DNA from: Candidatus Parvarchaeota archaeon
Lineage (GTDB): Archaea; Nanobdellota; Nanobdellia; Parvarchaeales; Parvarchaeaceae
NCBI GenBank assembly: GCA_023378865.1
Contig: JAMCSP010000026.1
Coordinates: 1-53,797, forward strand
Length of the DNA stretch: 53,797 nt
Direction of reading: 5' to 3'
Shown piece after piece: positions 1-4,382 of the stretch. The translations under genes and the position numbers were made by a program. The notes under the pieces are model-generated. The model searched no databases. It was not told the DNA's origin and worked only from the letters and a program-made list of their open reading frames with translations. Position 1 is the first letter of the stretch. Every line of letters starts with the position of its first letter.

Positions 1-464
1 GTTGGGCAATACTGATCATAGTCATCGTAGCTGTAATCCTGTACTCTATGGGTATTTTTAACCCTAGAGCAAGTGTAACCGCAAGTAGCAGTGGGTTCAG
101 CCCATTCGCAGCAAGCGCAGCAATATGCAGTACATCGGGCTTAAAGGTATCCTTCTCAGTAGGAGGATTACCTGATGGAGCGACTGCAGCGATATTGGAT
201 AATTTGACGTTGAGTTCCCCAAGTGGGTTTACGTCGGGTATTCCAGCGACCGTCTACAGCGCAACAGGCGTGGCGGATGGCGATGCATTCAGTTCTACCA
301 CTGTAGCATCTGGAAACAGTTTTACAGTTAACGACTCAACTGCAATTTGTTCTACAAGCGGAGTACCTTTCACTGCTAGTGGGAAATTGGACTACTCTGT
401 TACAACAGCAGCAGGCACTGCAGTGTTTACAGCAACGGGTACAATAGCAGGAACAAGCAGCTAA
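1..464 (+). CDS. Archaeal type IV pilin, copy A (5' end outside window)
   Basis: Frame is open from nt 3 (WAILIIVIVAVILYSMGIFNP...). Nt 1-127 are identical to nt 628-754 of the complete pilin downstream. Confidence 0.85.
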   Translation, partial: WAILIIVIVAVILYSMGIFNPRASVTASSSGFSPFAASAAICSTSGLKVSFSVGGLPDGATAAILDNLTLSSPSGFTSGIPATVYSATGVADGDAFSSTTVASGNSFTVNDSTAICSTSGVPFTASGKLDYSVTTAAGTAVFTATGTIAGTSS

Positions 465-500
465 AAATGATTTGATTTTTTATTTTTTCTTTTTTATTTT
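465..500 (+). terminator. Oligo-T archaeal terminator after pilin A (repeated at 1065-1096)
   Basis: T-runs directly after the stop codon in both copies. Confidence 0.6.
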
Positions 501-584
501 AAAATAATGCAAGTTATAAAAAAGAGAATATCTTGTAGGCTCTTCGAATTTTAGACTTAAATACTATCATTTTTTATTATAATT

Positions 585-1064
585 ATGGCAAAAGGACAGT
601 CAGCATTGGAATATATGATGACTTATGGTTGGGCAATACTGATCATAGTCATCGTAGCTGTAATCCTGTACTCTATGGGTATTTTTAACCCTAGAGCAAG
701 TGTAACCGCAAGTAGCAGTGGGTTCAGCCCATTCGCAGCAAGCGCAGCAATATGTAATACTACCGCAACATATGTATCCTTCTCAGTAGGAGGATTACCT
801 GATGGAGCGACCGCAGCAAGTCTGGTAAATTTGACGTTGAGTTCCCCAAGTGGGTTTTCATCAACTTCATTTCCCGTGACTGAAACATTTCCTACAGGCA
901 CAACAGTGTCATCAGGTAGTAGCTTTAAGGCTATAGTAGCGGCAACTTGCTCAACAAGCGGAGTGCCTTTCACTGCATCGGGTGCATTATATTATGGTGT
1001 TACAACAGCAGCAGGAACGGCAACTTTTAAAGCAACGGGTACAATAGCAGGAACAAGCAGCTAA
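585..1064 (+). CDS. Archaeal type IV pilin, copy B (class III signal peptide)
   Basis: MAKG/QSALEY with E at +5, then a hydrophobic helix, a Ser/Thr-rich head, two Cys and N-glycosylation sequons. Confidence 0.88.
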   Translation: MAKGQSALEYMMTYGWAILIIVIVAVILYSMGIFNPRASVTASSSGFSPFAASAAICNTTATYVSFSVGGLPDGATAASLVNLTLSSPSGFSSTSFPVTETFPTGTTVSSGSSFKAIVAATCSTSGVPFTASGALYYGVTTAAGTATFKATGTIAGTSS

Positions 1065-1210
1065 AAATGATTTGATTTTTTATTTTTTCTTTTTTTAAAT
1101 TTACTAGCAGGTTATCTTTTAATTTTAGTTATTGTTTAAAGACAAACTGCTTAAATTACTGTTAGATATAATAAATTAACGTTTTTAACCTAACCTTTAT
1201 TAGTTATTAT

Positions 1211-1714
1211 ATGAAGAAAGCAGTTTATGCCGGCAGCTTCGATCCCATAACAATAGGCCATGAATGGGTGATTGAAAAAGCTGCATCCTTATTCGATGAA
1301 TTAGTAATAGCGGTAGGGGAGAATCAGCAGAAAAAAGAGGATTTTTCACTGGAAGAAAAGAAGAAAATGCTTGCATCCGTAACAAAAAACTATAAAAACA
1401 TAAAAATAGATGCTTTCAAGGGCGAATTTCTTGTGGATTATGTCAAAAGGATAAACGCTTTGTATATAGTAAGAGGAATAAGGACCGAAACTGATTTAGA
1501 GTATGAAAAAGGGATACAATACATAAATAGCAGGTTAAACGAGAACATAACAACTATTTTTCTTATACCGCCGGAGGACCTGTCAGTAGTAAGCTCCAGT
1601 CTGGTAAGAAGCTTAGTTGGAAGCAAAGGCTGGGAAAAAGTTGTTAGAAAATTTCTTCCAAATGAGGAATGTTATAGAATATTTGTAAACCATTATTCAG
1701 GCACTAAAATTTAG
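1211..1714 (+). CDS. coaD: Phosphopantetheine adenylyltransferase, bacterial type
   Basis: AVYAGSFDPITIGH, IVRGIR, DLEYE and VSSSLVR motifs. Confidence 0.9.
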   Translation: MKKAVYAGSFDPITIGHEWVIEKAASLFDELVIAVGENQQKKEDFSLEEKKKMLASVTKNYKNIKIDAFKGEFLVDYVKRINALYIVRGIRTETDLEYEKGIQYINSRLNENITTIFLIPPEDLSVVSSSLVRSLVGSKGWEKVVRKFLPNEECYRIFVNHYSGTKI

Positions 1715-1718
1715 TCTT

Positions 1719-2399
1719 TTACTTTTTATCCGGCTTATCTTTTACTTTATACAGCAGGCTTCTTGCAAGATTGTTATTTAATTTGTTTAAGTAGTTTTCA
1801 GCTTTTTCTGATATTTTAGCATAGTTTTCATTTGAAAGTTTAAAGCTACTTTTCGCATTTACAGAGTTTCTTTTTTCTTGGTTTAGTATATCTGAATTGG
1901 AAAAATGTTCTGAAAATGTATCAATTGCTGTTTTAATATCGCTTTTATATAAAAAACTAGAGATTGCAAGAAATCCGGCAAGTGCTTCCACGTAATTCTT
2001 TGACTTTGAAATTGCATACCTGGTGGCTTCAGATTCAGGGAAGCAGTCTACTATATAACTGCCGCTGTTAATGTAAAGCAGCCTATTAAAATAATCTCTT
2101 GCGTTTTTGTTTTTATCTTTTATTTCATGGAAATGCCCTAATTCATGCCGTATTATGAATCTGCATCCCTCTCTTAGTTCACTTAATTCATCCTTTTCTG
2201 CTATAAAGTAGATTATGCGCTTGGTTTCATAAGATAGCCATATCTGGTTGTATCCTAAGGAATATGCCATGCCGTTGATATAATGCGGGAGTATATTCTT
2301 AGAGAGTTCAATGCTTTCGGTTATTCCAAGTTTTTGTGATAATAATGATTTGTATTTTTCATCATCTTTAAGGATTTTGTTCAACTTGCTGTTTTTCAT
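1719..2399 (-). CDS. Hypothetical protein with HExxH zincin-like motif
   Basis: IIRHELGHFHE followed by ESEATRYA. Confidence 0.55.
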   Translation of the reverse strand: MKNSKLNKILKDDEKYKSLLSQKLGITESIELSKNILPHYINGMAYSLGYNQIWLSYETKRIIYFIAEKDELSELREGCRFIIRHELGHFHEIKDKNKNARDYFNRLLYINSGSYIVDCFPESEATRYAISKSKNYVEALAGFLAISSFLYKSDIKTAIDTFSEHFSNSDILNQEKRNSVNAKSSFKLSNENYAKISEKAENYLNKLNNNLARSLLYKVKDKPDKK

Positions 2400-2498
2400 C
2401 TATTTTCTAGATTTTAAATGATATAAAAATGTTTATTTAGGAGTGAGCAATGGGATATAAAACAAGTATATAATGAATGGATTACTAAATGATTCTTT

Positions 2499-3590
2499 AT
2501 GAAAGGAGAAGTAATTTACAGCTATTTTTATGATTTTTCGGATGAGATAGATCTTAAGGATGTTAAGAACTATTTTAGAGGGGCAGAAGAGTTTTCATTT
2601 TATGAGTATGGGAAGGCAGTGCCAGAAGGATTAAACCCGTTTGAACTTCCAATAGTGGTAAATACGGGCAAAAAAGAGATAGGTTTTGACAGTATAAACT
2701 TACCGGTCAACATACAGTGTGTAATATACTCGGTCGGAGCCATGGCGGTAAGGGTGCGTTCTCCCATTGAAAATCTTAATATTTCTTTATTAGAAAAGAT
2801 TACATTTGACAAAAGATTTGAAAACAAATTTAAGGAACTGGCAGAGGATACAAAAGCAAGGGTAGAAAAAACTCTTTCTAAGCACATTCAGATAAAAGAA
2901 AAAAGAGTATTTGAGATGTACAGGTCTTACTTTTTAGAGCAGTGTGCAGACAGTTTTGTAGATAAAAATAAGTGGTTTATAGCAGGTATCCTGTTAGACG
3001 AACAGAATTACAAGGAGCTATCAAAAGAATATGTAGCAAATACAATAAAGAGAAGTTTGTCGTATTACGGCTGTGATTCAGTCATAGTGGACTGGGATGC
3101 GATGTTTCTGATATCGAATACAAGCAATTATGAGAATGAAATAATGGTAGCGGATACTGCAAACATACAGCTTTTGGAATACAGGGTATACCAAAATGAG
3201 GTAAACAAGATGATAGATGCCGTAAATAATCGTTTTCTGAAAATGAACAGGAACCCTTTCTACATAATATTCACAAGGAGGAATATGATAAAGTTAAGCA
3301 AGGAAATAAGCGATTTCTATGCCGAGTACAAGGATCTTGTTGAGGGTATAAACCAGATAATCATGAGTTTTGGGGAATGGTATCTTGCCAGGATTTATTC
3401 TCTTCTTTCAGATGCCTTTCGTCTTACTGACCTAGCAAAAAGATTAGAAACTACGTTTGATATGCTTGTAAATATACGTAGTTTTATACAGAGTCATGTT
3501 TCGGAGGATACCAGCTCATTTTTAGAGTGGGTTGTTATACTTTTGTTTGTAATTGAAATAATTCTTATTATAATCCCCTTCTACAAATAA
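2499..3590 (+). CDS. Conserved protein, RMD1/DUF155-like, with C-terminal TM helix
   Basis: C-terminal LEWVVILLFVIEI helix preceded by a helical region, resembling the RMD1 family. Confidence 0.5.
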   Translation: MKGEVIYSYFYDFSDEIDLKDVKNYFRGAEEFSFYEYGKAVPEGLNPFELPIVVNTGKKEIGFDSINLPVNIQCVIYSVGAMAVRVRSPIENLNISLLEKITFDKRFENKFKELAEDTKARVEKTLSKHIQIKEKRVFEMYRSYFLEQCADSFVDKNKWFIAGILLDEQNYKELSKEYVANTIKRSLSYYGCDSVIVDWDAMFLISNTSNYENEIMVADTANIQLLEYRVYQNEVNKMIDAVNNRFLKMNRNPFYIIFTRRNMIKLSKEISDFYAEYKDLVEGINQIIMSFGEWYLARIYSLLSDAFRLTDLAKRLETTFDMLVNIRSFIQSHVSEDTSSFLEWVVILLFVIEIILIIIPFYK

Positions 3591-3653
3591 AGTTATTTTA
3601 ATGCTTGGCATAAAAAGAAAGGCTTAATAAGGTGTACACTTCTTAAATAATTA

Positions 3654-4382
3654 ATGCTTACTAAGAGCAGAATTGATTTTAAGGGCGTAGTATTTGATTT
3701 TGATAACACATTAGTAGACACGAAAAAAACCATCTTGGAAGCATATACTAAGGTCTTTTCCGAAATGGCCGAAAAATTCAATGTAGACAAAGAAAGACTT
3801 ATTTCTGAAGCGGATGCTTTTCAGCAGGAAAAGATAAGAGAACTAGCAGAATCAAAGGCATCCTACAATCATGCAGACTGGATACCATTGATAGCGGAGA
3901 AAGGATCTATAAAATTAAATGAAAAAGAAAAGGAGTACTACAAACAGGTATTTTACTCTTATGTGATTGAGAACCAGAAGTTCTCAAGCGAAACAGAGGA
4001 ATTGCTCAAAGAATTGAAAAAAGATGGTAAAAAGCTGGCGCTTTTAAGTGAAAGGGACTCAATAAGCGGTTTAAAGGCCGAGAGGATAAATAAAGTTCCT
4101 TTTCACAAATATTTCGATGTTGTAGTAATAGCTGGAGAAACAATACCTTTCTCAAAAGCGAAGGACGGAGCTAAACCATTTATAGAAACCGCAAGGCTTT
4201 TGGGATTAAGCACGAAAGACATAATAATGGTTGGAGACAGGCGGGATTTAGATATACAAAATGCGAAAGAATCCGGAATGAAAGCGGTTCTGTTTACTGG
4301 CTATAATAATTCCCAGGAAAAATGCAATTATGAGCCTGACTTGGTAATAAGCGATATCTCAGAATTTGGCAGGATACTGTAA
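3654..4382 (+). CDS. HAD-superfamily hydrolase
   Basis: FDFDNTLVDT motif I and MVGDRRDLDI motif IV. Confidence 0.9.
   Translation: MLTKSRIDFKGVVFDFDNTLVDTKKTILEAYTKVFSEMAEKFNVDKERLISEADAFQQEKIRELAESKASYNHADWIPLIAEKGSIKLNEKEKEYYKQVFYSYVIENQKFSSETEELLKELKKDGKKLALLSERDSISGLKAERINKVPFHKYFDVVVIAGETIPFSKAKDGAKPFIETARLLGLSTKDIIMVGDRRDLDIQNAKESGMKAVLFTGYNNSQEKCNYEPDLVISDISEFGRIL

Follow-up and report, generated by a model that had tools for sequence, protein, structure and literature searches.

The pilE system of Neisseria requires a G-quadruplex upstream of the expressed gene, and S. sanguinis reportedly has multiple major pilins. In the accessible part of the account of Neisseria pilE/pilS (PMC4877100), the pilins have a constant N-terminus and anchors that flank the cysteines, and the segments in between vary by gene conversion. 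The neighbouring type IV pilin genes pilA1 and pilA2 of the archaeon Sulfolobus islandicus are identical in 7 of 12 strains and have five alleles in one population; their diversifying selection is linked by the authors to virus evasion (PMC7217056). Haloferax volcanii has several pilins, PilA1-6, each of which can form pili. They share a near-invariant H-domain and differ in their heads, and the available part of the source mentions no conversion at the nucleotide level (PMC4371748). In the lpl cluster of Staphylococcus aureus, tandem paralogs coding surface proteins are reshuffled by homologous recombination at one central conserved nucleotide block (PMC2568036, partial text). The pilins of Nanobdellati are scattered, and the main text that describes them, as far as accessible, makes no mention of gene conversion (PMC13705601).

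The locus compared here with these systems opens the window, the whole stretch of 53,797 nt that was analysed, corresponding to the initial 53.8 kb of contig C26 in the source genome (G000; 807 kb, 35 contigs, 91% complete). It resembles the Neisseria system in its constant N-terminus, its anchors next to the cysteines and the variable segments that they enclose, in the probable gene conversion, and in the presence of a homologous recombinase in the genome (RadA family, PF08423, E 1e-89 on contig C13). It differs from it in that no unexpressed donor loci were found in the assembled DNA and that complete copies carry a promoter and a signal peptide. In its working it would match the reshuffling of tandem paralogs in lpl, and it also resembles the pilins of S. 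islandicus and H. volcanii. The S. islandicus copies are near-identical throughout and lie on opposite strands, whereas the copies found here are arranged head-to-tail as a blockwise mosaic whose heads are identical at 58 of 92 positions. Unlike what is described for H. volcanii, they are tandem copies sharing genome-specific silent alleles, and where lpl has a single conserved block they have four, located at the two ends and in the interior. No report of this locus, of gene conversion or hypervariability of DPANN pilins, or of the hairpin described below was found in the open-access literature. The nucleotide-identical blocks alongside deeply diverged head segments are probably explained by homologous recombination between constant blocks, which copies or swaps segments among gene copies and strains.

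Organization of the Pilin Locus

The genes and signals of the locus are listed below; coordinates are those of the window unless a locus on contig C9 (L001) is given.

3..464, plus strand: pilin copy A, of which 153 codons are visible; the start of the contig removes its first 15 codons and the promoter
557..563, plus strand: TATA-like box TTAAATA, 21 nt 5' of the copy B ATG
585..1064, plus strand: pilin copy B, whole, 159 aa; class III signal with the peptidase site between MAKG and QSALE, hydrophobic helix 7-30, beta-sandwich head, Cys57 and Cys122
1211..1714, plus strand: coaD (pantetheine-phosphate adenylyltransferase), TIGR01510 above cut-off; downstream synteny marker outside the mechanism
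L001 (C9) 3-428, minus strand: third pilin copy, C, cut by the end of contig C9
L001 (C9) 554-3907, minus strand: 1117-aa surface protein with a beta-propeller, preceding copy C

Copies B and C each have their own TATA-like box and signal peptide, so that for copy B the difference from silent pilS noted in the original prediction is confirmed. The TTAAATA motif is found at a comparable distance ahead of the pilin in all 16 relatives displayed, and the copy B transcript is likely leaderless.

The gene order in relatives is a conserved gene coding a 217-aa pilin-like protein, one short pilin (sometimes with a divergent second type), and coaD and/or a gene coding a protein of 220-230 aa. In the source genome the first half of this order ends contig C9 inside copy C and the second half starts C26. 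In genome G019 a surface protein similar to the beta-propeller protein of C9 is followed by two pilins and coaD. Copies C, A and B therefore probably form one array of at least three copies. The earlier proposal that the array continues upstream is thus probably right, with the third copy in the syntenic position at the end of C9. The ends of C9 and C26 do not overlap, and the gap may therefore hide further copies.

Matches were obtained in 24 of 24 congeners, at 2-26 in each genome, and many of these are modular pilins of 350-580 aa with an N-terminal pilin module. The locus is present twice in genome G001, on C13 (L012), near-identical to G002, and on C42 (L067), near-identical to G011, with 1/213 silent differences each; G001 is probably a mixed bin. 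The coaD gene is closer to its G019 counterpart (silent divergence 0.28) than is the HAD gene nearby (0.47), a hint at transfer of the propeller-pilin-coaD block from one lineage to another. Another tandem pilin pair (L077) has a transposase-like ORF directly upstream (911-2011, IS110-type by eye).

Properties of the Pilins

Class III signal peptides follow the rule of a Glu at +5. The leader of copy B is short and basic and has Glu at this position. Comparable peptidase sites KGQV, KGQI and KGQL are tabulated for the Epd pilins of M. maripaludis in the accessible part of the source (PMC4371748). The AlphaFold model of B (mean pLDDT 79) has the helix at residues 7-30 followed by eight strands. 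Its first three Foldseek ranks are archaeal pili or archaellum (8fk7, 6w8x, 5tfy), at E 0.003-0.007, none significant, and in the VIA structural alignment the Z of 7.0 to 8fk7 is tied with unrelated Ig folds, the matches being generic Ig-like. The pilin has no Pfam match and no NCBIfam match above cut-off. The source genome codes for a prepilin peptidase A24 (PF01478, C25) and for two secretion ATPases (PF00437, C13 and C18). From the signal motif and the model, A, B and C are predicted to be type IV pilins of a Parvarchaeum-like DPANN archaeon. The short length, the fixed locus and the conserved promoter suggest that they likely serve as main pilins. Named homologs carry the labels Ca. Parvarchaeota or Parvarchaeum, and the sequencing runs that contain this DNA are mostly from mine tailings and drainage.

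The pilin head is also found fused to the carboxyl terminus of proteins with unrelated amino-terminal anchors: L002 (contig C34 of the source genome) 2869-4308, minus strand, L073 2166-2825 and L075 1654-2316. The head-fusion protein of G016 (P0063) groups among heads of the source genome type in the head tree.

Identical Blocks and Variable Segments

The repeat structure of copies A and B (all on the plus strand) is the following.

1..127: constant block 1 of A, recurring exactly at 628-754; 127 nt is a lower bound
628..754: codons 15-57 of B, its constant block 1
147..184: constant block 2 of A; its 38 nt recur unchanged at 774-811 of B
201..230: constant block 3 of A; its 30 nt recur unchanged at 828-857 of B
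231..345: most variable head segment of A, holding the 9-codon length difference
858..947: codons 92-121 of B, its most variable head segment
431..495: constant block 4 of A; 65 nt that take in the last 11 codons and a T-rich terminator-like tract
1031..1095: constant block 4 in B, identical to 431-495

These exact runs of 127, 38, 30 and 65 nt had been reported in the original prediction, as had the variable segments STSGLK versus NTTATY and ILD versus SLV, which do lie between the blocks. To them is added an 18-nt identical run (398-415/998-1015) that was absent from its list. The net indel of 9 codons, 27 nt, is also recovered and shifts the repeat spacing from 627 to 600. Both cysteines are retained, two per copy, and the sequons differ as claimed (NLT and NDS in A, NTT and NLT in B). 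For the 231..345 segment of A, no second copy and no donor were found in the assembled source genome. Other contig pairs of this genome (C14-C20, C14-C29, C9-C28, C18-C31) overlap by exactly 126-127 nt; the 127 nt therefore probably reflect the word length used by the assembler, and block 1 would in truth extend further upstream. The identity was also said to extend to the terminator. It does, but on its own this says little about conversion, since terminator and gene ends are conserved in other species too.

Conserved Gene Ends and a Predicted Hairpin

Among 13 main pilins the silent divergence is 0.25 in codons 5-56 and 0.21 in codons 150-160, versus 0.59 in the head; neighbouring genes diverge from those of the source genome by 0.22-0.56. 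Pairs from different species can also show silent blocks of 0/11 or 0/12 (C13 of G001 versus G012). This low silent divergence of the ends across the genus means that part of the identity does not come from conversion within a genome. The terminator tract is nearly unchanged in most species displayed, and residues 1-57 and 150-159 are almost invariant in 64 aligned homologs. The ends are frozen genus-wide by constraint, by exchange across species, or by both.

An RNA element may account in part for the identity at the 5' end, as a constraint. Neither this element nor the low silent divergence of the ends figures in the original prediction.

614..656, plus strand: predicted hairpin of 18 pairs (-20.5 kcal/mol), encoded through synonymous codons 10-24

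Its z is -3.1 versus dinucleotide shuffles (580-760) and -5.5 versus synonymous recodes. The median z versus recodes is -3.9 across 33 short pilins, where the hairpin is strong, and -0.4 across 13 long ones whose peptide is similar, where it is mostly absent; the rows are related, so that p is overstated. Covariation is weak, with both sides changed in 2 of 18 pairs (220 of 500 shuffles score as high) and 89% of cells paired. RNAalifold on 25 genes gave a different, looser consensus than the single-sequence hairpin, and an Rfam search of 1-1300 returned nothing at E<=1. The hairpin is a lead, not an established element.

Patchwork of Silent Sites

Recombination at the pilin locus is well supported by its silent sites. 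Between A and B the silent differences are 0/39 (codons 16-56), 2/15 (64-78), 2/12 (79-93), 6/7 (94-121), 10/23 (122-149) and 0/11 (150-160), with 16/30 for the pooled codons 94-149. The tandem pair of G019, which belongs to another species, gives 0/38, 0/15, 5/7, 7/12, 5/26 and 0/11 in the same bins. The expectation that the differences are clustered rather than evenly scattered was borne out by permutation of the A/B silent sites, with p ~5e-5 over the full gene (22 of 109 sites differ) and p=0.006 within the head (21 of 58). For the head of the G019 pair p is 1e-4, while 2 of 10 other pairs tested reach p 0.03-0.04 and 8 of 10 are not significant.

Of 36 silent sites variable in A, B and the G019 pair, 15 group by genome, 2 across and 19 neither way. 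Blocks 2 and 3 taken together show 4/27 silent differences between A and B, 13/23 between B and C, and 14/17 between B and the first pilin of G019; B and C differ at 4/13 and 9/10 silent sites within codons 64-93. In codons 16-56, 6/38 silent sites set copy C apart from A and B; it was thus not homogenised with them lately.

The main and second pilins of G004 and G047 are ancient paralogs, whose heads are 25/87 and 20/88 identical. In this quartet codons 5-36 have 5 sites grouping by genome, 2 by orthology and 3 otherwise, and codons 37-160 have 2, 8 and 20, respectively. Genome-specific silent alleles at the 5' end of ancient paralogs identify a conversion tract there that recent duplication cannot explain. 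Together with the patchwork and the independent G019 pair, this tract upholds the choice, made in the original prediction, of gene conversion or block shuffling over duplication and drift.

Alleles in Relatives and Metagenomes

Mixtures of A and B motifs occur among database proteins. In 14 close proteins (12 from databases plus A and B) LKV/TYV and LDN/LVN are found in all four combinations (A, B, P0001 and P0005): P0001 is B-like with the LDN of A, and P0005 joins LKV and TVN of A to LVN and YYG of B. Note that these are proteins lacking DNA or context and that the motifs are three residues long, so that convergence is possible. The near-identical loci of G011 and C42 of G001 (1/213 silent differences in the neighbouring gene) have one main pilin each, and within codons 79-121 these pilins differ by 14 residues and at 9 silent sites. 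Segments can therefore be replaced without need of an array.

The spacer from the A terminator to the B start is present in contigs of three studies (X1 508-607, X5 452-586, X6 453-586; four runs examined), of which run X1 may be the source sample. The tandem junction is thus not a stitching artefact. Positions 828-971 of B are unchanged in contigs of two further studies. In run X5 one contig equals B exactly over 828-971 and another has 8 differences in 725-842, these contigs being unphased. Scans of metagenome contigs for DNA of close alleles gave 0 matches with a first pattern and 1 with a second, L077, a more distant pair. No relative was found among 62 pattern matches in viral contigs, and hence no sign of virus-borne donors there. 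The evidence for recombination consists of contigs and proteins, with no recombinant phased on a single read.

Proposed Mechanism and Alternatives

Ordinary homologous recombination, presumably of the RadA type, would start in the constant blocks and overwrite segments between adjacent copies, and segments from other strains would also be imported. Constraint on the protein, together with the 5' hairpin, may keep the ends alike enough to serve as crossover anchors even between species. The head differences would be maintained by selection from host surfaces or viruses, a cause proposed by analogy with S. islandicus. All copies would be expressed from their own promoters; the TATA-like box of each full copy points to mixed or alternative filaments per cell, not to switching of one expressed gene. 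A diversity-generating retroelement was considered and rejected: the source genome has no match to the reverse transcriptase PF00078, and 52 of 95 A/B substitutions involve A, which is not an adenine-only pattern.

The alternative closest to this mechanism differs from it in the donor only. After a recent tandem duplication, other strains or species would have supplied foreign head segments, and A and B would have exchanged nothing with each other. Replacement of the middle at a single-copy locus in near-identical genomes fits this account. So does the head tree, a rough guide as it is built from mosaic sequences, which places A, B, C, 13 database proteins and the head from C34 in a single lineage pool (support 94/91) and joins the two G019 heads (98/81). 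The alleles shared by the ancient paralogs of G004 and G047 stand against it, showing that intragenomic conversion occurs at this locus in the genus, and the account is unlikely. Rather unlikely as well is a genus-wide exchange of pilin heads in Parvarchaeum, in which frozen ends and hairpin are dedicated anchors and segments move at high rate between tandem copies, strains and species and even onto other surface proteins; such an archaeal antigenic variation would have no silent cassettes and would adjust the host range or the escape from viruses.

It is quite improbable that recombination is unnecessary, A and B being old duplicates whose protein, mRNA hairpin and terminator are under purifying selection while the middle drifts. 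The near-invariant terminal residues, the hairpin score against recodes and the terminator kept across species are what such selection would leave. The hairpin, however, spans codons 10-24 only, blocks 2 and 3 are free to vary, as their comparison with C and G019 shows, and the 15 versus 2 diagnostic sites and the quartet counts largely refute this reading.

Programmed variation of the pilE/pilS kind at high frequency, with unassembled donor cassettes in the C9-C26 gap, is very improbable. The gap could conceal copies, and assemblies break or are scrambled inside the gene in the source genome, G002, G011, G023 and G041. In the last four a gap (an N gap in G002), break, stop or frameshift falls within the same pilin gene (L071 in G002, L076/L015 in G011, L074 in G023, L070 in G041). 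Two 3' segments that resemble A and have comparable depth moreover occur within one sample (records 3 and 4 of X1). Against this, a TATA-like box and a signal peptide are present on every complete copy seen, and tblastn of the 91%-complete source genome at E<=1 found no short headless or 5'-truncated pilin copy (the assembly covers neither the C9-C26 gap nor the 5' end of copy A). Neither strand of 1-1300, a region that begins inside copy A, has a G4 motif. In most of the relatives inspected the main pilin is single, at times beside a divergent second type, and the single-copy locus also swaps its middle. The likeness to Neisseria drawn in the original prediction is not supported at this level.

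An assembly artefact, by which alleles of two strains were stitched in tandem or identical blocks collapsed, can practically be dismissed: the first difference does come right after the 127 nt with which the contig opens, a length equal to the overlaps in this assembly, but the A-B spacer recurs in three studies (X1 with the reservation made above) and the G019 pair, fully assembled, repeats the pattern in the same gene context.

Biological Meaning

Concerted evolution of tandem pilins is a familiar kind of evolution; what is new is the lineage. The patchwork locus explains why genome bins break at this gene. Were the frozen ends and the hairpin dedicated anchors, this would be a fast exchange system. 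Pili are prime candidates for host recognition and virus evasion in the DPANN symbionts. The locus offers a small bounded marker of ~90 variable codons flanked by frozen ends; amplicon or long-read sequencing could type its alleles, which could then be compared with the communities of hosts or viruses.
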